A stretch of 64,000 bases of DNA, from NCBI GenBank assembly GCA_021323755.1, contig JAJPKJ010000051.1:403-64402 (forward strand), in the 5' to 3' direction. Under the pieces are notes generated by a model, which saw only the letters and a program-made list of their open reading frames with translations, was not told where the DNA came from and did not search any database. Shown piece after piece: positions 43,711 through 61,275 of the stretch. How positions within the stretch are numbered: position 1 is the stretch's first letter; every line of letters starts with the position of its first letter. This DNA is from Chitinophagales bacterium (lineage in GTDB: Bacteria > Bacteroidota > Bacteroidia > Chitinophagales > Chitinophagaceae). A program made the translations under genes and the position numbers.

Positions 43711-44091
43711 ATGGGACCGGAAGTTATTGGCGTGTTTATACCGATCTTATTAGGTCTGGGAGCATTTGCCATGGTATTTGGAATAAGATATTTTCAAAAC
43801 AAGGAAAATATTGCCATGATCGAAAAAGGGATGAATCCCAAGTTGATTGAAAAAAGACCTACCCCTTACCGTAACCTGAAATGGGGTCTGTTATTACTTG
43901 GCGCAGGGCTGGGTCTGTTTGCAGCCTATTTGTTAGACAATTTTGTTTTCTATCGAATTCATAACGGATTTGATAACGACGCAAATGTTGCCATTTACTT
44001 CGCACTCATTGCGGTCGGCGGCGGATTTGGCTTAATAAGCTCATACCGCATCGAAAAAAGAGAATTATTGGATAAACAGAACAAAGAATAA
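43711..44091 (+). CDS. small membrane protein (DUF6249-like), divergent from the ECF sigma gene
   Basis: 126 aa with 3-4 TM helices (VIGVFIPILLGLGAFAMVFGI, WGLLLLGAGLGLFAAYLL, IYFALIAVGGGFGLI). The family name is from memory. Confidence 0.7.
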   Translation: MGPEVIGVFIPILLGLGAFAMVFGIRYFQNKENIAMIEKGMNPKLIEKRPTPYRNLKWGLLLLGAGLGLFAAYLLDNFVFYRIHNGFDNDANVAIYFALIAVGGGFGLISSYRIEKRELLDKQNKE

Positions 44092-44116
44092 TATCCATTC
44101 TCCATCTATATAACTA

Positions 44117-44147
44117 AGGCCCCGCTCTTTGCGGGGCTTTTTGTTTT
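44117..44147 (+). terminator. rho-independent terminator
   Basis: GGCCCCGC-tcttt-GCGGGGCC-like GC stem (GCCCCGC/GCGGGGC) followed by TTTTTGTTTT. Confidence 0.8.
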
Positions 44148-44300
44148 GGTGAACAAACCGCAGTGTTAAATGTTCTGTATCTTTTTGACCCGCTCAACAA
44201 TCAGTTTAACTTTTTTCGGTAAAATTGCTGATAATGACAGATTTTTGCAGCACTCATACTTGACTTTAAACATATTGATTCATTTTGAAATTATTTTGAC

Positions 44301-54278: not shown

Positions 54279-54842
54279 ATGCATGATATAGAACCATTTT
54301 ATAACTGGCGTCATATTTACGTGAGCGAAGAAGATGAGCGCTCGCCATTCTACGGTCGCGTATATTCGGAATTTCAATTCACGCAAACGATCTACAATTA
54401 TTATATCCATCCGCAGTGGGATGATTTTGGTTCCCGCACTTTATATATGAAAGTGCTGATGGCGGATTATGAAGAACATTATGTGGTCATTGAAATGATC
54501 GGTGAATGGAATGATGCGATCGAAAATGATATTATGGAATTGAAACGCGAAGTGATGGATGTTTTTTCTGCAGAAGGTATTAATAAATTTATTTTGATTG
54601 CTGAGAATGTCCTGAATTTTCACAGCGGCGACAGAGATTATTACGAAGAATGGTATGATGAAGTGAGCGAATCCGGCGGATGGATCGCCTGTCTGAATAT
54701 GCCTGAACAGACACAATATGATTTCCGGCGTGCAAAACTGAATCGTTTTATTGAATTGGTTGAGATCGAAAACTGGCGCGTTTACAGACCGATTCATTTG
54801 TTCAGAAAAATTGATGAACAGATCACCAAGCGTTTGCAGTAG
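54279..54842 (+). CDS. hypothetical cytoplasmic protein
   Basis: 187-aa ORF with ordinary, acidic, W/Y-rich composition. No motif recognised. The antisense ORFs over it look like shadow ORFs. Confidence 0.55.
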   Translation: MHDIEPFYNWRHIYVSEEDERSPFYGRVYSEFQFTQTIYNYYIHPQWDDFGSRTLYMKVLMADYEEHYVVIEMIGEWNDAIENDIMELKREVMDVFSAEGINKFILIAENVLNFHSGDRDYYEEWYDEVSESGGWIACLNMPEQTQYDFRRAKLNRFIELVEIENWRVYRPIHLFRKIDEQITKRLQ

Positions 54843-55011
54843 TGAGAAGGGGAGCTCAGTCGCAGCGTATATTGTTTTTTGCAGACCGGAGGAAATTGAT
54901 TGGGGGCAATCGGCCTGCGGGTTAGACTTCGATGCAAAAAAATGATCATTCCGAAGAAATCGCCTGACACCTGAACCGGGACTGACCAACACATTTTGAG
55001 TAAGCCGGAAC

Positions 55012-55052
55012 CCGCCCCGGCAGAAGATCTTATGAGTATGGGCGGTTGTTGG
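55012..55052 (+). terminator. weak terminator-like hairpin
   Basis: CCGCCC (55012-55017) pairs with GGGCGG (55040-55045), 22-nt loop, followed by TTGTTGG. About 170 nt after the upstream stop. Confidence 0.3.
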
Positions 55053-55079
55053 TGAACGTAATTATTTAAAAAAATAATT

Positions 55080-55108
55080 TTTGGTTTTAAAATAAGTCTA
55101 TATTTTTG
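55080..55108 (+). promoter_or_regulatory. candidate Bacteroidota promoter for the phe/tyr leader
   Basis: TTTG (55080-55083), a 17-nt spacer, then TATTTTTG (55101-55108, TAnnTTTG). It ends 5 nt before the leader ATG. Confidence 0.35.
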
Positions 55109-55113
55109 ATGGA

Positions 55114-55206
55114 ATGATTACAACAAAGGCATACCGTTATTTTTACTTTTATTATTTTTTTTACTTTACCAGTAAACCGGGAATGCTTTTGTTAACAACT
55201 AAATAA
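55114..55206 (+). CDS. Phe/Tyr-rich leader peptide (30 aa)
   Basis: ATG ATT ACA ACA AAG GCA TAC CGT TAT TTT TAC TTT TAT TAT TTT TTT TAC TTT ACC ... TAA = MITTKAYRYFYFYYFFYFTSKPGMLLLTTK. Sits directly upstream of a terminator and pheA. Confidence 0.55.
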   Translation: MITTKAYRYFYFYYFFYFTSKPGMLLLTTK

Positions 55207-55228
55207 ATTTATAACTTAACAAATACAG

Positions 55229-55260
55229 AATCCCGGTCAAAAGCCGGGATTTTTATTTTT
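55229..55260 (+). terminator. attenuator terminator preceding pheA
   Basis: 8-bp stem AATCCCGG/CCGGGATT (55229-55236 / 55244-55251) with a 7-nt loop, then TTTTTATTTTT. It ends 3 nt before the pheA ATG at 55264. Confidence 0.75.
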
Positions 55261-55263
55261 ACT

Positions 55264-56094
55264 ATGAGCAAGAAAGTCTCCATACAAGGTTACGAAGGAA
55301 GTTTTCACCAGGAAGCGGCTCGTCAGTTTTTCGGGAAACAGGTAGCGGTGATTCCCTGTGCCACTTTTCGAGAAGTAGTAAAGATCGCTGCTAATAAAAA
55401 AGAAAGTGATGGAGGAGTAATGGCCATTGAAAACTCCATTGCCGGAAGCATATTGCCCAATTACAACCTGCTGCAAAAAAGCAATTTGAAGATCATCGGT
55501 GAAATTTATTTGCATATCAGCCAGAACCTGATGGTGAACCCGGGTGTAACGTTGAAGGATATACGGGAAGTGCACTCTCATCCGATGGCGATTCAGCAAT
55601 GCCTCGAATATCTTGATAAATTTGATTGGAAATTGGTAGAAACAGAAGATACTGCCCTGAGCGCAAAACAGGTGCATCAACACCGGAGCAAACATATTGC
55701 TGCCATCGCCAGTAAGTTGGCTGCAGAGCTTTTCCACCTGCAATTGATCGCGCCAAATATTCAAACGATGAAAAAAAATTACACCCGTTTTTTAATTGTA
55801 CAACCAGAAGCTGCGGCAGCAAAAATTGATAATGCTGATAAAGCTTCTGTCAATTTTCATACGGATCATTCGCGCGGAAGTCTGGCAAGGGTGCTCACCA
55901 AGATTGCGGATGCCGGCATTAATCTCAGCAAACTGCAATCTTTTCCAATTCCCGGCAGTGACTGGGAATATTCTTTTCACGCAGATATGGAATTTGACAC
56001 GATGGAACAATTCAACAACGTAATTGAAAATATCAAACCGATTACAGCAGGTTTGAAAATTTATGGTGTATATAAAAAAGGAAAAACGGTCTGA
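55264..56094 (+). CDS. pheA: prephenate dehydratase
   Basis: IQGYEGSFHQEAA, TRF motif (NYTRFLIV) and a C-terminal ACT domain (GSLARVLTKIADAGINLSKLQSFP). Confidence 0.92.
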   Translation: MSKKVSIQGYEGSFHQEAARQFFGKQVAVIPCATFREVVKIAANKKESDGGVMAIENSIAGSILPNYNLLQKSNLKIIGEIYLHISQNLMVNPGVTLKDIREVHSHPMAIQQCLEYLDKFDWKLVETEDTALSAKQVHQHRSKHIAAIASKLAAELFHLQLIAPNIQTMKKNYTRFLIVQPEAAAAKIDNADKASVNFHTDHSRGSLARVLTKIADAGINLSKLQSFPIPGSDWEYSFHADMEFDTMEQFNNVIENIKPITAGLKIYGVYKKGKTV

Positions 56095-56148
56095 TCCTCG
56101 AATTCAGCCAGGCAAAGTGTAGGTTGATAAGGAAAACAAATTCTTGAA

Positions 56149-57375
56149 ATGATTAAAAATTCAGATAATAAAATGAATGAATTAAAGACTTCCAGCAGGC
56201 TCGATGGCATCGGGGAATATTATTTCTCTCAAAAGCTGCGAGAGATCGACGATCTCAACAAGCAGGGAAAAAATATTATCAATCTCGGCATTGGCAGCCC
56301 CGATCTGCCGCCGCATCCGGAGGTGATCAGGACATTGCAGGAGGAAAGTGCAAAGACTAACGTGCATGCATACCAGAGTTATAAGGGCTCGCCAATTTTA
56401 CGAAATGCCATTGCCGACTGGTATAAAAAATGGTATGGCGTGGAATTGAATCCAGATGCAGAAATTTTACCCCTGATCGGAAGCAAGGAAGGCATTATGC
56501 ATATCTGCATGACTTATTTTGAAGGGGGAGTTGGCGTGCTCGTTCCCAATCCCGGTTATCCGACTTATTCAAGTGCGATCAAACTCTCAGGAGCAACGCC
56601 GGTCTATTATGAATTACAGGAAGAGCAGAATTATTTCCCCGATTTTATAGAGCTTAAAAAGCTGATTGTAGAACATGCCCGGTCAAGTCCAATAAAAGGG
56701 ATTTTTGTCAATTATCCGCAAATGCCCACGGGACAACTGCCGACAAAGCAATTTTTTGAAGAGCTGGTTGCATTTGCAAAAGCAAATAATATTTTGGTCA
56801 TTCATGATAATCCATACAGTTTTATTTTAAATGAAGAACCGATGAGTTTATTGAGTGTTGATGGAGCAAAAGAGGTGGTGATTGAATTAAACTCACTCAG
56901 TAAGTCGCAAAATATGGCGGGCTGGCGCGTAGGAATGCTCGTTGGCGCAAAACAAAGAGTAGACGAAGTTTTGCGCTTCAAAAGCAATATGGATAGCGGC
57001 ATGTTTTTACCTGTTCAGCTGGCGGCAGCAAAAGCTCTTTCGCTTGGTAAGGATTGGTACGACAGCGTTAATGTCATATACAGAAAAAGAAGAGAAAAGG
57101 TCTTTGAATTGCTAGACCTGATTCATTGTGTTTATTCGACCCAGCAAGTTGGGATGTTTGTGTGGGCAAAGATCCCGGCGAAATATAAAACCGGGTTTGA
57201 GCTGAGTGATGAAGTGTTATACCATGCAAATGTGTTCATCACACCTGGCGGCATATTTGGAAGTGCCGGGGAAAAATATGTGAGGGTAAGTCTTTGTACC
57301 ACAGAAGAGAAGTTTTCCGAAAGTATAAGAAGAGTAAAAGAATTTCTAGCCATTAAAACAACAGCAAATGTTTGA
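56149..57375 (+). CDS. class I/II PLP-dependent aminotransferase (aromatic/prephenate aminotransferase candidate)
   Basis: NLGIGSPDLPP...NPGYPTY...NSLSKSQNMAGWRVG (PLP lysine). An alternative ATG at 56173 gives MNELKTS. Confidence 0.88.
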   Translation: MIKNSDNKMNELKTSSRLDGIGEYYFSQKLREIDDLNKQGKNIINLGIGSPDLPPHPEVIRTLQEESAKTNVHAYQSYKGSPILRNAIADWYKKWYGVELNPDAEILPLIGSKEGIMHICMTYFEGGVGVLVPNPGYPTYSSAIKLSGATPVYYELQEEQNYFPDFIELKKLIVEHARSSPIKGIFVNYPQMPTGQLPTKQFFEELVAFAKANNILVIHDNPYSFILNEEPMSLLSVDGAKEVVIELNSLSKSQNMAGWRVGMLVGAKQRVDEVLRFKSNMDSGMFLPVQLAAAKALSLGKDWYDSVNVIYRKRREKVFELLDLIHCVYSTQQVGMFVWAKIPAKYKTGFELSDEVLYHANVFITPGGIFGSAGEKYVRVSLCTTEEKFSESIRRVKEFLAIKTTANV

Positions 57376-58216
57376 TTCGATTACCATTGTTGGTGTTGGA
57401 TTGATAAGTGGTTCATTCAGTCTGGCCTTAAAGCAGAAAGGCCTGGTGAAAAATGTGATTGGCATCAGCCGCACCGAAGCCAGCATCAAAAAAGCATTGG
57501 AACTTGGACTGATAGACGAGTCTTTGCCTTTAAAAGAAGCAGTGGAAAAAAGTGATTTGATCTATGTGGCGATCCCGGTGGATGTAACGATAACGGTTAT
57601 GCGTGAAATAATGGACATGATCAATGAAAAACAAATTGTTGCGGATGCCGGTTCGACAAAATACGCGCTATGTTCATCCTTGGCTGATCATCCGATGCGC
57701 AGCAGGTTTGTTGCCACCCACCCGATGTGGGGAACTGAGTATAGCGGACCGGAAGCTGCGGTGAAAGATGCCTTCGTTGGTCGTAGCTGCGTCATCTGTG
57801 AAAAAGAAAAAAGTGATAAAGATGCTGTCGAAACCATTGAAAATATTTACCGGCAACTGGGGATGCATTTGGTATACATGGATGCATACGCGCATGACGT
57901 GCATGCTGCTTATGTGAGCCATATTTCTCACATCACTTCTTTTGCGCTGGCAAACACGGTCCTGGAAAAAGAAAAAGAGGAAGATGCGATCTTTGAATTG
58001 GCAGGGGGCGGCTTTGAAAGCACGGTGCGTTTGGCGAAAAGTAGTCCGGCAATGTGGGCTCCTGTTTTTATGCAAAACAGAGAAAATGTTTTGGATGTCT
58101 TGAATGAACATATTTCTCAGTTGCGGAAATTTAAGAGCTGTCTGGAAAAAGAGAATTACGAATACTTGTGGGAGTTAATGGTAAATGCAAATAAGATCAA
58201 GAAGTTAATAAAATGA
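57368..58216 (+). CDS. tyrA: prephenate dehydrogenase
   Basis: ITIVGVGLISGSFSLALK (NAD fold)...DAGSTK...HPMWGTE...SHISHITSFAL. Overlaps the upstream gene by 8 nt. Confidence 0.9.
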   Translation: MFDSITIVGVGLISGSFSLALKQKGLVKNVIGISRTEASIKKALELGLIDESLPLKEAVEKSDLIYVAIPVDVTITVMREIMDMINEKQIVADAGSTKYALCSSLADHPMRSRFVATHPMWGTEYSGPEAAVKDAFVGRSCVICEKEKSDKDAVETIENIYRQLGMHLVYMDAYAHDVHAAYVSHISHITSFALANTVLEKEKEEDAIFELAGGGFESTVRLAKSSPAMWAPVFMQNRENVLDVLNEHISQLRKFKSCLEKENYEYLWELMVNANKIKKLIK

Positions 58217-58342
58217 GGGATGATCCGGGGATTGATCAATGGTGAAAGAAGTTCTACATGGGGTGCGGGATGGGATGTCTGGCTGGATAGTATGCTGGGA
58301 ACGCTCGGCAGACCGCTAAAATCAGACATCGTACATTAATCG

Positions 58343-58350
58343 TACCTTTG
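58343..58350 (+). promoter_or_regulatory. candidate -7 box (TACCTTTG)
   Basis: TAnnTTTG match, 19 nt upstream of the helicase ATG at 58370. Confidence 0.35.
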
Positions 58351-58369
58351 CGCAAAATTTTAAAAATAT

Positions 58370-60055
58370 ATGATGACTTTTGAAGGGCTTGGATTGGATG
58401 CAAAATTAGTTCAGGCAACGGATGCGCTGGGATATAAGAATCCAACGCCAATCCAGGAACAGGCGATCCCTGTTTTATTAAGTGGTACAAAAGACCTGGT
58501 TGGTCTCGCTCAAACAGGCACCGGTAAAACAGCAGCATTCGGATTACCATTGCTGCAATTGATCTCGGTGGAGCAAAAATTTCCGCAGGCGTTGGTGGTT
58601 TGTCCAACGAGAGAACTGTGTCTGCAGATCGTAAGTGAAGTGGAATTGTTTAAAAAGTTTTTGCCGGGAATGCATGTTGTTGCCGTTTATGGCGGCGCTT
58701 CCATTGGCATGCAGATAAGAGATTTGAAAAGAGGCGTTCAGATCGTTGTGGCGACGCCGGGTAGACTGATTGATTTGATAGAAAGAAAAGCGATCAATCT
58801 TGAACAGATAAAATATGTTGTGCTTGATGAGGCCGATGAAATGCTGAACATGGGTTTCCAGGACGACATCGAATTTATTTTGCAGAATACGCCAAAAAGA
58901 GAGGCAACATGGCTTTTCAGCGCCACCATGCCGGCTGAGATCAAGCGGGTAAGCAGAAAATACATGAAGCAGCCGATCGAGATCACGGTTGGCAAAGTAA
59001 ATACCGCAAATAAGAATATTGACCATCAATTTTATGTTACGTCTGCGCATCACCGTTATGATACACTAAAAAGAATCATTGATTTCAACCCGGGTATTTA
59101 TGGGATCATTTTTACCCGGACAAAAGCAGACGCTCAAAACATTGCGGAAAAATTGACCAGGGAAGGATATGATATTGATGCGCTCCACGGCGATTTGACG
59201 CAGCAGCAGCGCGATAAAGTGATGGGAGAATTCCGGGAAAGAGCTTTGCAGTTATTGATCGCCACGGATGTGGCAGCAAGAGGAATTGATGTGCAGGGGA
59301 TCACGCATGTTATCAATTATGAATTGCCGGATGATGTGGAAGTGTATACGCATCGCAGCGGAAGAACGGGAAGAGCCGGCAACACCGGAATTTGTTTATC
59401 GATCATACATAGCCGGGAGATCGGGAAGCTCCGACAGATAGAAAGGATTGTACAGGTTCCTTTTCACAAATTGGAAATACCCAGTGGAAAAGATGTTTGT
59501 CGAAAACAGTTCTTCTATTTTATGGAGAAGTTATTACAGGCAGATATCAGTCATGGAGATTATGAATCTTATGTGCCGATGCTGGAAGAAAAATTTGCAG
59601 ACATCAGTAAGGAAGAGGTGCTGAAGCGAATGGCAGCGATGGAATTCAACAGGTTCTTAAAATCCTATGAAAATGCGGAAGACCTGAATGTGAGAGAACG
59701 TGTTCGCGAATTCAGAACCGAGGAGAGGGCAGGGGCAAGACAAAGGAGAGAACCGGCATCCTCGCAGGCAAGAAGTTTCAGAGACACCAGAGGACGAGAA
59801 TTCAATGGTAATGGTGATTACACCAAACTGTTCGTGAACCTTGGAACGAAGGACGGTTTTTATAAAGCAAGCTTTTTACAGTTCATTCTTGACATGAGCG
59901 ATCTGAGAAAAGAAGTGCTCGGAAGAATTGACATGAAAGAAATGAACAGTTGGATCGAAGTGGACAGAAATGCGGCAACGCAAATGATCCGGTCGATCGA
60001 TGGGAAAAATTATAAAGGTAGAAGGATCAGGATGAATGAAGCGAACAGCAGATAG
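58370..60055 (+). CDS. DEAD-box ATP-dependent RNA helicase with C-terminal DbpA-type RNA-binding domain
   Basis: Q motif (GYKNPTPIQ), AQTGTGKT, PTRELC, DEAD (VLDEADEM), SAT, HRSGRTGRAG. An Arg-rich linker is followed by a DbpA-like tail. Confidence 0.93.
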   Translation: MMTFEGLGLDAKLVQATDALGYKNPTPIQEQAIPVLLSGTKDLVGLAQTGTGKTAAFGLPLLQLISVEQKFPQALVVCPTRELCLQIVSEVELFKKFLPGMHVVAVYGGASIGMQIRDLKRGVQIVVATPGRLIDLIERKAINLEQIKYVVLDEADEMLNMGFQDDIEFILQNTPKREATWLFSATMPAEIKRVSRKYMKQPIEITVGKVNTANKNIDHQFYVTSAHHRYDTLKRIIDFNPGIYGIIFTRTKADAQNIAEKLTREGYDIDALHGDLTQQQRDKVMGEFRERALQLLIATDVAARGIDVQGITHVINYELPDDVEVYTHRSGRTGRAGNTGICLSIIHSREIGKLRQIERIVQVPFHKLEIPSGKDVCRKQFFYFMEKLLQADISHGDYESYVPMLEEKFADISKEEVLKRMAAMEFNRFLKSYENAEDLNVRERVREFRTEERAGARQRREPASSQARSFRDTRGREFNGNGDYTKLFVNLGTKDGFYKASFLQFILDMSDLRKEVLGRIDMKEMNSWIEVDRNAATQMIRSIDGKNYKGRRIRMNEANSR

Positions 60056-60186
60056 CATTTCGGTTTTTCCGTTCAGCTTATGGTTCTGATATCAAACTGA
60101 CCCCAAGGGAAATAATTAATAATTAAAATGGATGTAAGATTTGAACAGATCCTACATCTCATAATCGTAAATCTTAAATTGTTATC

Positions 60187-61275
60187 ATGGAAGCAACAGC
60201 ATCAAAAATGAAGGAAGTGGTTCAGGAAAAATGGAAGAAACGCCCATTAATCATTTCGGGACCATGTAGTGCGGAGACGGAAGAACAGGTGGTTGAAACT
60301 GCAGTTCGTTTACATAAGACCGGTAAAGTGGATATTATGCGTGCAGGAATTTGGAAGCCGCGCACGCGCCCCGGAAGTTTTGAAGGCGTGGGCGCAAAGG
60401 GCTTGCCCTGGCTGCAGCATGCGAAAAAACTCACCGGCATTCCGGTCGCTGTGGAAGTTGCAACCGGCAAGCAAGTGGAAGATGCATTGACCTTTGAAGT
60501 AGATGTACTCTGGATTGGCGCGCGCACCACCGTGAATCCTTTTAGCGTGCAGGAAGTTGCAGATGCCCTTCGTGGTGTTGATGTTCCGGTGCTCATAAAA
60601 AACCCGATCAATCCAGACCTGGAATTGTGGACCGGAGCGGTAGAGCGTGTAGCAAAAGCGGGCATCAAACAAATCGGATTGATACATCGTGGATTTTCTT
60701 CTTACGGGAATACCGAATATCGCAATGCACCGATGTGGCACCTGGCCATTGAAATGAAACGCCGCAATCCCGGATTGCTTTTTATCAATGACCCATCTCA
60801 TATTTGCGGACGCAGGGATATCCTGCAGGATGTCGCACAGGAGGCGATCGACCTTGATTATGATGGATTGATCATCGAAAGTCATATTGACCCCGACAAT
60901 GCCTGGAGCGACGCAAAACAACAGATCACTCCGGAGCGTCTGGCTGAAATGCTCAGTAGCATTCGCTGGAGAAAAGAAGATATTGCCTCCGAAGAATATC
61001 ATGCGGCAATGGAAAAGATGCGCCAGCAGATCAATCAGCTGGATGATGAGTTGATGCAAATCCTGAGCACCAGGATGAAAGTGTCTGAAAAGATCGGACA
61101 GTATAAAAAAGACAATAACATCACCATTTTGCAAACCAACAGGTGGAACGCAATATTGGAGCGGGCTTATGCAAAAGGTGAAAAGCTCGGATTAAGTAAA
61201 GAGTTCATCACCAAATATTTTGACGCCGTGCATATGGAAAGCATTAATCATCAGAACAAGATCCTGAATTCGTGA
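60187..61275 (+). CDS. bifunctional 3-deoxy-7-phosphoheptulonate synthase (type I-beta) / chorismate mutase
   Basis: N-terminal KDSA-like DAHPS (IISGPCSAE...KPRT.PGSFEG...DPSH) and a C-terminal AroQ-type chorismate mutase (QINQLDDELMQILSTRMKVSEKIGQYK). Confidence 0.9.
   Translation: MEATASKMKEVVQEKWKKRPLIISGPCSAETEEQVVETAVRLHKTGKVDIMRAGIWKPRTRPGSFEGVGAKGLPWLQHAKKLTGIPVAVEVATGKQVEDALTFEVDVLWIGARTTVNPFSVQEVADALRGVDVPVLIKNPINPDLELWTGAVERVAKAGIKQIGLIHRGFSSYGNTEYRNAPMWHLAIEMKRRNPGLLFINDPSHICGRRDILQDVAQEAIDLDYDGLIIESHIDPDNAWSDAKQQITPERLAEMLSSIRWRKEDIASEEYHAAMEKMRQQINQLDDELMQILSTRMKVSEKIGQYKKDNNITILQTNRWNAILERAYAKGEKLGLSKEFITKYFDAVHMESINHQNKILNS

Follow-up and report, generated by a model that had tools for sequence, protein, structure and literature searches.

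In a 64,000-nt stretch of DNA from a Chitinophagales bacterium (assembly GCA_021323755.1, contig JAJPKJ010000051.1, positions 403 to 64,402 of the forward strand; hereafter the window), the pheA-aminotransferase-tyrA operon is preceded by a short open reading frame (ORF) with ten consecutive phenylalanine (Phe) or tyrosine (Tyr) codons, followed by an intrinsic terminator. We conclude that this element is very probably a ribosome-mediated, leader-peptide transcription attenuator of the operon, which would respond to the supply of charged tRNA-Phe and tRNA-Tyr. A first-pass annotation, made from the letters of the window, had proposed a candidate ribosome-mediated attenuator at this site. The finding is real, and this proposal is borne out by a conserved ATG-started ORF, a coding constraint on its Phe/Tyr (F/Y) codons, the terminator, and an antiterminator with compensatory changes. 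That first interpretation was essentially right but incomplete, and the element belongs to an uncurated, phylum-wide Bacteroidota family that has been noticed once before, in a supplement (PMC9723704). The evidence presented below concerns the parts of the element, their conservation, covariation, and geometry (Table 1).

Table 1. Coordinates of the pheA leader, its RNA elements, and the operon genes in the window
Feature	Position	Strand	Basis
-33-type TTTG promoter element (Bacteroidota sigma-A)	55080..55083	+	Read in sequence; consensus PMC7366714
-7 box TATTTTTG, TAnnTTTG consensus	55101..55108	+	Sequence; conserved spacing
Leader ORF, 30 codons, MITTKAYRYFYFYYFFYFTSKPGMLLLTTK then stop	55114..55206	+	Translation; ATG-started homologues in relatives; covariance model match
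Region 1, 5' arm of the anti-antiterminator hairpin, codons 3-8	55122..55136	+	Minimum free energy partner 55178-55193
Regulatory run, 10 consecutive Phe/Tyr codons (codons 9-18)	55138..55167	+	YFYFYYFFYF, 5 Y + 5 F
Region 2, ACCGGGA ... TTGTTAA, alternative partner of region 1 or region 3	55176..55195	+	Folds and covariation
Region 3, TTAACAA ... TCCCGGT, antiterminator 3' strand	55216..55237	+	Last 11 nt are the terminator 5' arm
Intrinsic terminator hairpin, 11 bp, loop CAAAA; region 4 is 55243-55253	55227..55253	+	Fold; consensus pairs
Terminator U-tract TTTTTATTTTT; first 4 U double as stem closure	55250..55260	+	Sequence
pheA, prephenate dehydratase (PDT+ACT)	55264-56094	+	Pfam
Class I/II aminotransferase (Aminotran_1_2)	56149-57375	+	Pfam
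tyrA, prephenate dehydrogenase (PDH_N+PDH_C)	57368-58216	+	Pfam

A Phe/Tyr-rich leader ORF is conserved upstream of pheA

Translation of the leader agrees with the first-pass annotation, which had described a 30-codon ORF with ten F/Y codons in a row and one more Tyr two codons before them (codon 7, 55132-55134). The positions that it had assigned to ACCGGGA (55176-55182), to TCCCGGT (55231-55237), to the TAnnTTTG box, and to the end of the U-tract relative to the pheA ATG are all correct. The ORF contains no tryptophan (Trp) codon and ends at a stop codon at 55204-55206. It harbors the only F/Y run of more than five codons in the window, in any frame, and a 10-codon run did not arise in 200 dinucleotide shuffles of the window or in 2,000 shuffles of 55040-55263. 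When its folding was compared with that of shuffled sequences, the leader was found to be more stable (z = -4.08).

Relatives were collected by a PheA protein scan of one genome per species, which yielded 80 loci, all Chitinophagaceae-like. Flavitalea is represented among them, as are Puia, Terrimonas, Pinibacter, and Foetidibacter, and cultured carriers of the element include Puia dinghuensis CGMCC 1.15448 (L077), Foetidibacter luteolus YG09 (L019), Pinibacter aurantiacus (L051), and Terrimonas pollutisoli (L044). Their PheA proteins are 76-91% identical to that of the window, and the closest are Puia-like, so that the window probably derives from a relative of Puia within the Chitinophagaceae. 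All 80 loci display, upstream of pheA, an ATG-started short ORF with 6-10 F/Y codons in a stretch of ten. A GC-rich hairpin with a T-run follows this ORF in 79 of the 80, under a strict criterion according to which the GC-rich stem must be followed at once by at least 5 T in 8. The F/Y runs of the relatives are 7-12 codons long, and each locus has at least three Phe and at least two Tyr codons. When the regions upstream of the pheA orthologs were aligned, the short ORF, the F/Y run, and compensatory changes in the hairpins proved to be conserved across Chitinophagaceae. A covariance model (CM) built from the Chitinophagaceae leaders and used as a search query scored 129 bits at the window leader and found one match per relative locus, always upstream of pheA.

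The leader RNA can form three conserved, mutually alternative helices

Structures were compared across 79 distinct leaders in a MAFFT alignment (A1). Helices other than the terminator were specified by hand and tested against two kinds of controls, one with the pairing partner slid along the alignment and one with shuffled sequences. The terminator core, AATCCCGG (55229-55236) paired with CCGGGATT (55244-55251), begins 22 nt past the leader stop. Both core and position are thus as first described, but the stem is longer than the 8 bp originally given, since wobble pairs extend it to 11 bp (55227-55237 with 55243-55253). Its RNAalifold consensus comprises ten pairs, five of which show compensatory changes.

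The antiterminator that had been proposed, a 7-bp helix between ACCGGGA and TCCCGGT, covaries as expected of a real pairing but was drawn too small, because a second, distal helix between TTGTTAA (55189-55195) and TTAACAA (55216-55222) covaries as well. For the complete, two-helix antiterminator, 78.5% of the cells in the MAFFT alignment are paired versus at most 54% in the slid controls, and its covariation score of 0.119, versus at most 0.045, was reached by none of 500 shuffles. A second test used a CM alignment that had been fitted to the competing conformer and was hence unbiased towards the antiterminator. There, 82.8% of the cells are paired (at most 52.8% when slid), nine pairs show double changes (a number reached by 0/500 shuffles), and the score is 0.136 versus at most 0.039. 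One column is particularly telling of how the alternative helices are tied to each other: column 142 of A1, in the terminator 5' arm and thus in region 3, switches from G to C in ~10 genomes, and both of its partners follow, column 72 in region 2 (CG:67, GC:10) and column 156 in region 4 (GC:62, CG:11). In the distal helix, pair 88-117 is found as GC:45 and AU:21.

The first-pass annotation had explained the switch by a two-part stall logic. This is supported, but it overlooked an anti-antiterminator hairpin between 55122-55136 and 55178-55193, which turns the leader into the classical four-region design. This hairpin, formed by regions 1 and 2, encloses the F/Y run and is found in 76 of the 79 relatives; on A1, 79.2% of its cells are paired versus at most 55.9% in the slid controls. 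Terminator and alternative antiterminator both form in folding comparisons, depending on transcript length. The minimum free energy fold of the full-length window leader (-32.7 kcal/mol) consists of the region 1:2 hairpin plus the terminator, while the nascent transcript to 55242 adopts the antiterminator fold, at -19.4 kcal/mol. The window antiterminator (regions 2:3) has a folding free energy (dG) of -17.8 kcal/mol, with z = -4.03. Across the leaders, mean dG is -20.9 kcal/mol for the antiterminator (z = -4.5), -17.3 kcal/mol for the run-enclosing hairpin (z = -2.4), and -18.2 kcal/mol for the terminator. When the transcripts are cut short before region 4, 78 of the 79 leaders have 5 nt or more of the terminator 5' arm paired to the 3' portion of the ORF. 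The three mutually alternative helices are therefore conserved; terminator and antiterminator covary, and the enclosing hairpin has moderate support.

These structures could also be thought to act on translation. In the window, the T-run ends at 55260, only 3 nt ahead of the pheA ATG (55264), many relatives have hairpins that end 7-20 nt before pheA, and initiation in Bacteroidota needs an unstructured, A/U-rich upstream sequence and not a Shine-Dalgarno (SD) sequence. The hairpin and U-tract might thus work mainly at the level of translation, with stall-induced pairing opening the initiation region. We consider this improbable as the main function. A canonical intrinsic terminator is present in 79 of 80 loci, and the distance from hairpin to pheA is estimated at anything from 3 to 258 nt (some values being inflated where the PheA match starts after residue 1), so what is conserved cannot be an occlusion of the start site. 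In Flavobacterium psychrophilum, for which the absence of SD sequences has been noted (PMC9723704), the expression levels of the 5' region and of the operon are separate, which fits termination with read-through. Translational occlusion is at most an added layer in the lineage of the window.

The leader ORF is constrained as codons in its 5' part and as RNA in its 3' part

Codons of the F/Y runs begin with T in 91% of cases and have A or T as their second base in 91% and C or T as their third in 99%, with TTT, TTC, TAT, and TAC all in use. Of the 156 alignment gaps that fall between the start codon and the last codon of the run, 155 are multiples of 3. This strict 3-nt periodicity, the conserved in-frame ATG, the nearly universal restriction of length changes to whole codons, and a frame without stops all argue against an untranslated riboregulator, in which the T/A-rich tract would be a binding site for a protein, a tRNA, or a metabolite instead of a series of codons. 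Aromatic operons in other phyla are indeed controlled by T-boxes or RNA-binding proteins (TRAP), and alternative terminator and antiterminator folds are common to all such systems. Yet a scan of the whole window at Rfam gathering scores matched no family, T-box included, and we regard an untranslated device as very unlikely.

Straight after the run, a 1-nt indel separates the leaders into two clades, with C termini of the type ..PGMLLLxxx and ..RGCFC, respectively. The C-terminal peptides of the two clades are unrelated while the nucleotides that encode them are nearly invariant, and the tail must therefore be conserved as RNA and not as peptide. Judged by this pattern, the 5' two-thirds of the ORF behaves as coding sequence and the 3' third as structured RNA, which is expected for a leader peptide with no function of its own.

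The same indel bears on the idea that the ORF encodes a functional, small, hydrophobic, aromatic-rich peptide, the hairpin being merely its terminator and any regulation of pheA incidental. The ORF is conserved, its N-terminal residues M-x-T-T-K-A-Y-R fairly so, and trans-acting leader peptides do exist, an example being peTrpL (PMC7298713). Selection on such a peptide is, however, hard to reconcile with an indel that alters the whole C-terminal half between clades while nucleotides and pairing are kept. Moreover, conservation of the N-terminal codons coincides with the position of region 1 in the RNA structure, the element is always found directly upstream of pheA, even in distant lineages where the peptide ends differently, and the covariation of the antiterminator would be left without a role. 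A peptide with its own function thus strikes us as highly implausible. The notion of a chance ORF beside an ordinary terminator, for which one might invoke the AT-rich intergenic setting (27% GC), the ease with which T-rich sequence gives Phe/Tyr codons, and the 5-codon runs elsewhere in the window, has a negligible probability and is refuted by the conservation data, since the element is kept in 80 of 80 relatives and in other orders, besides which no shuffle reached ten codons and a promoter precedes the leader.

A proposed four-region attenuation model

From these features we infer how the ORF would be translated, where ribosomes would stall, where transcription would start, and what the regulatory outcome would be. 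Transcription would start at the leader AUG or within a few nt of it. When Phe and Tyr are plentiful, the translating ribosome would pass the ten F/Y codons and reach the stop codon, thereby covering or passing region 2; at the stop codon, it would cover the distal half of this region, and in the ..RGCFC clade the leader stop itself falls inside that distal half. With region 2 unavailable, region 3 would pair with region 4, the terminator would form, and RNA polymerase would halt at the U-tract before pheA. If no ribosome is present, region 1 would pair with region 2, and the terminator would form too. When Phe or Tyr is scarce, the ribosome would stall within the F/Y run, masking region 1 or parting it from region 2, and would leave region 2 exposed and able to pair with region 3 once the latter is transcribed. 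The bipartite antiterminator would then sequester the terminator 5' arm, and polymerase would read into pheA.

The geometry of the leader is compatible with this scheme. Toeprinting places the 3' edge of a ribosome ~15-16 nt from the first P-site base, which corresponds to 9-10 nt past the A-site codon. The [CG]GGG core of region 2 begins at about this distance, 9-10 nt after the last F/Y codon, in 72 of 79 loci, and a stall anywhere in the run would therefore leave region 2 free. Since Phe and Tyr codons are interleaved, a shortage of either amino acid would be predicted to de-repress an operon that makes both, i.e., multivalent attenuation.

Several points weigh against this attenuation model or burden parts of it. 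Region 1 lies upstream of the run and does not itself hold the regulatory codons, and a stall at the late codons of the run leaves it uncovered; that a ribosome stalled there would still block pairing between regions 1 and 2 is a matter of argument. The covariation of the region 1:2 hairpin is moderate: it has eight double-change pairs, a number attained in 33 of the 500 shuffles, its score is 0.206 versus 0.157 in the best slid control, and RNAalifold on the MAFFT alignment called the terminator alone, not this hairpin. Furthermore, once region 4 is present, the 11-bp terminator is thermodynamically favored over the proximal antiterminator helix of 7 bp, also when region 1 is masked, which means that anti-termination would have to be kinetic. 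Anti-termination at trpL is likewise kinetic. Finally, leaderless initiation is rare in Bacteroidota, and efficient translation from a leader of 0-5 nt is an assumption of the model: 5' untranslated regions (5'UTRs) shorter than 10 nt account for only 3.7% in Bacteroides thetaiotaomicron (PMC7366714), and leaderless mRNAs for 5.5% in F. psychrophilum (PMC9723704).

Promoter spacing predicts a nearly leaderless transcript

The promoter sits between the end of the upstream gene (54842) and the leader. Its TTTG element lies 17 nt 5' of the -7 box. A strict TAnnTTTG box is present upstream of the leader ATG in 76 of 81 loci, and 38 of these 76 also have a TTTG 17-20 nt 5' of the box. The box ends 5 nt before the ATG in the window and 4-9 nt before it in 68 of the 76 strict-box loci. 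At mapped F. psychrophilum start sites, the TAnnTTTG box is found at -12..-5 (PMC9723704), and this spacing therefore predicts a 5'UTR of 0-5 nt in Chitinophagaceae; in the window, transcription is predicted to start near 55113, giving a 5'UTR of ~1 nt. The conserved spacing agrees with the nearly leaderless transcript postulated in the first-pass annotation, a point that is still read from sequence. Elsewhere the distances are longer: in gut-metagenome leaders, those of the Alistipes type included, 17-55 nt separate the -7 box from the ATG, and the start site of the F. psychrophilum pheA leader was mapped 20 nt 5' of the AUG (PMC9723704), as opposed to the 0-5 nt predicted for leaders of the window type. 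The leaderless layout therefore appears to be specific to Chitinophagaceae-like lineages, and this predicted layout is the most distinctive feature of the Chitinophagaceae element.

Whether the Chitinophagaceae leader peptide is made from a truly leaderless mRNA, with transcription starting at the A of the AUG or 1-5 nt before it, is close to evenly balanced in our view, with the scales tipped slightly against. If it were, the decision to transcribe pheA and tyrA would hinge on leaderless initiation, and only 8 nt of transcript would precede region 1. Bacteroidota, which lack SD-led initiation and in which leaderless mRNAs are rare, would thereby have their first leaderless ribosome-mediated transcription attenuator, and with it a compact natural reporter for the efficiency of leaderless initiation.

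Phe/Tyr leaders of pheA occur across Bacteroidota

A homolog search with the window PheA itself returned only relatives at least 80% identical. For a wider reach, a 53%-identical PheA representative was used for a metagenome scan, and a second homolog search was added. Short ORFs rich in F/Y(W) codons are present in nearly all metagenome loci with enough upstream sequence, and a terminator comes after most of them; MKNYSPFYANYFYYYFSISGRTRIAI and MGQYSPFFGYYFYFYFTKSGLGLHC are examples of such distant leaders. The human-gut group of leaders belongs to Alistipes/Rikenellaceae, and an F/Y leader upstream of pheA-aminotransferase was confirmed in three named Alistipes metagenome-assembled genomes (Bacteroidales). 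On leaders on which it had not been trained, the Chitinophagaceae CM scored 29-52 bits for the Alistipes type and 72-131 bits for other lineages. One metagenomic leader (L102:1318-1462) has no in-frame ATG and an apparent GTG start (GTG ATT TCT AAA GCA AAC ACC GGT TTT TTC TAC ...), and is still matched by the CM with 84 bits.

Trp codons are a side feature of some leaders. A single one is found directly before or in the F/Y run in L012, L016, L045, L057, L062, L070, L073, L075, L076, and L080, and also in the more distant leaders L103, L104, L105, L107, and L114. AYRWFYFYYFF and HSLFWGYYFYF are examples from this subset. The lone Trp codon may add a weak Trp input in this subset.

The closest known counterpart comes from the same phylum. 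Guerin et al. 2021 (ISME Commun, PMC9723704, SI Appendix D9, Table S7) described in F. psychrophilum an F/Y/W leader-peptide attenuator of pheA-aspC3 with a mapped start site, separate expression levels for the 5' region and the operon, read-through in some conditions, and induction of the operon in nutrient-poor media; it is conserved in other Flavobacteriaceae. Like the window, it has an operon headed by pheA and then an aminotransferase gene, a short ORF with interleaved Phe and Tyr codons (MNTNNTFYSNNSFYFYWNIGRDCYMVI), and then a terminator with a GGGA/TCCC core, and neither element has an Rfam match. When we folded the F. psychrophilum sequence, the same four-region design emerged, with a hairpin around the aromatic codons, a region 2 (GGGAUUGU) that pairs with the terminator 5' arm (ACAAUCCC), and the terminator. 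Its aromatic codons are fewer and interrupted (FY..FYFYW), with one Trp, whereas the window has ten consecutive ones. The F. psychrophilum element also has transcriptome support, while that of the window is known from its sequence. These expression data lend indirect support to the predicted translation of the leader and to the predicted rise in read-through when the cognate charged tRNA runs short. An nhmmer comparison with the F. psychrophilum sequence gave 18 bits, with high compositional bias and mostly over the terminator. Common descent of the two elements is plausible.

With leaders in Chitinophagales, in Bacteroidales, and, from the literature, in Flavobacteriales, the device is phylum-wide. 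Behind this pattern may lie common descent or the repeated, convergent evolution of F/Y codons with a terminator, and convergence could explain the weak scores. The F. psychrophilum supplement was the only description of Phe/Tyr leaders in Bacteroidetes that our literature search turned up. The suggestion in the first-pass annotation that a mixed Phe+Tyr leader had not been described thus holds for Chitinophagales but not for the phylum. Some attenuators in Bacteroidetes/Chlorobi were reportedly predicted by Vitreschak et al. in 2004, in FEMS Microbiol Lett.

Relation to other attenuators

The pheL-pheA leader of Gammaproteobacteria (Rfam Phe_leader RF01859; PMC3082878) shares with the window its class of mechanism, the enzyme gene, an ORF with a run of Phe codons, and alternative hairpins. 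It differs in having Phe codons only, in controlling pheA alone, and in being translated by SD-led initiation, whereas in the window element the conservation of Tyr codons equals that of Phe codons, and TyrA is encoded in the operon as well. In Escherichia coli, tyrA is regulated separately from pheA. The window reaches 20.9 bits against RF01859 (E = 0.48), which is below the gathering score of 55 and does not make it a member of this family. The Bacteroid-trp leader (RF01692; Weinberg et al. 2010, PMC2864571) is likewise a candidate leader-peptide attenuator of an aromatic operon in the same phylum, but its regulatory codons are Trp and its operon is trp instead of pheA/tyrA. A local Rfam scan of 54850-55350 at E values up to 10 gave no match to RF01692, and the matches that it did give were all sub-threshold and driven by the terminator.

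Sensing of several amino acids by one leader has well-known precedents. Among enterobacterial multivalent attenuators, the thr leader carries Thr and Ile codons, and the ilvGMEDA leader carries Ile, Leu, and Val codons. As in the window, interleaved codons in these leaders match an operon or pathway with several products; unlike the window, they concern other amino acids in another lineage, and there is no sequence relationship. For translation at the 5' end of the transcript, a parallel is offered by mycobacteria, where leaderless polycysteine short ORFs are reported to attenuate operonic expression in response to cysteine (bioRxiv 10.1101/834739). These resemble the predicted window leader in being short ORFs at or next to the transcript 5' end with leaderless initiation. 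They belong to another phylum, and their leaderless status was measured, whereas here it is deduced from promoter spacing.

The class of mechanism proposed here is textbook, and no concept is changed by it. What the element adds to Bacteroidota is a well-supported family of cis-regulatory RNA for which Rfam has no model, in a phylum where the regulation of amino acid biosynthesis is poorly charted and where SD-independent translation makes it uncertain how classical attenuation would work. The 79-sequence alignment, the three alternative helices, and the matches in Chitinophagales, Bacteroidales, and unplaced lineages suffice for a curated model, which would improve genome annotation, for example of PheA start codons. 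Multivalent sensing of Phe and Tyr fits an operon that makes both amino acids, and the Chitinophagaceae leader is a testable case of a leader peptide from a leaderless transcript.

The operon and its surroundings

The regulated genes span 55264..58216 (+), and the order pheA-aminotransferase-tyrA is kept in every locus with enough flanking sequence. Close relatives have many PheA database entries of 290-301 residues, compared with 276 here (P0002, P0005, P0011, P0015, P0045, and others). The extra 14-25 N-terminal residues would be read from the terminator and leader region, which suggests that these starts were mis-called because the leader is not annotated.

Directly upstream of the leader lies an ORF of 187 residues with no Pfam match (54279-54842, +). 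The succession of a SIS-domain gene, this 187-residue ORF, and the pheA leader is syntenic in about half of the relatives. On the other side of the operon, a gene for a DEAD-box/DbpA-type RNA helicase (58370-60055) stands between tyrA (57368-58216) and a gene for DAHP synthase/chorismate mutase (60187-61275), and it has a TAnnTTTG-like box of its own, TACCTTTG (~58345-58352). The helicase gene is in this place in ~38 relatives, the DAHP synthase/chorismate mutase gene directly follows tyrA in ~23, and the helicase gene is upstream of pheA in 8, layouts from which we conclude that it split the aromatic cluster repeatedly. No leader or attenuator was found in the gaps before the helicase gene (58217-58369) and before the DAHP synthase/chorismate mutase gene (60056-60186), and a generic scan of the window for short ORFs with amino acid runs followed by terminators produced no other candidate attenuator.

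The second-best CM match in the window (44058-44149, 25.9 bits) was rejected as another leader, as it corresponds to an ordinary terminator past the ORF at 43711-44091. This is a strong intrinsic terminator, GGCCCCGC tctt tGCGGGGCTTTTTG (44107-44145), matched by the CM purely through its hairpin and T-run. A comparable case was seen in one of the relatives (L065:418-582), where a palindromic hairpin, AAATTCCGGCC aatt GGCCGGAATTT, with T-runs on both strands lies ~2.2 kb upstream of the pheA leader of that locus. It is matched by the CM on both strands with ~42 bits and is apparently a bidirectional terminator.

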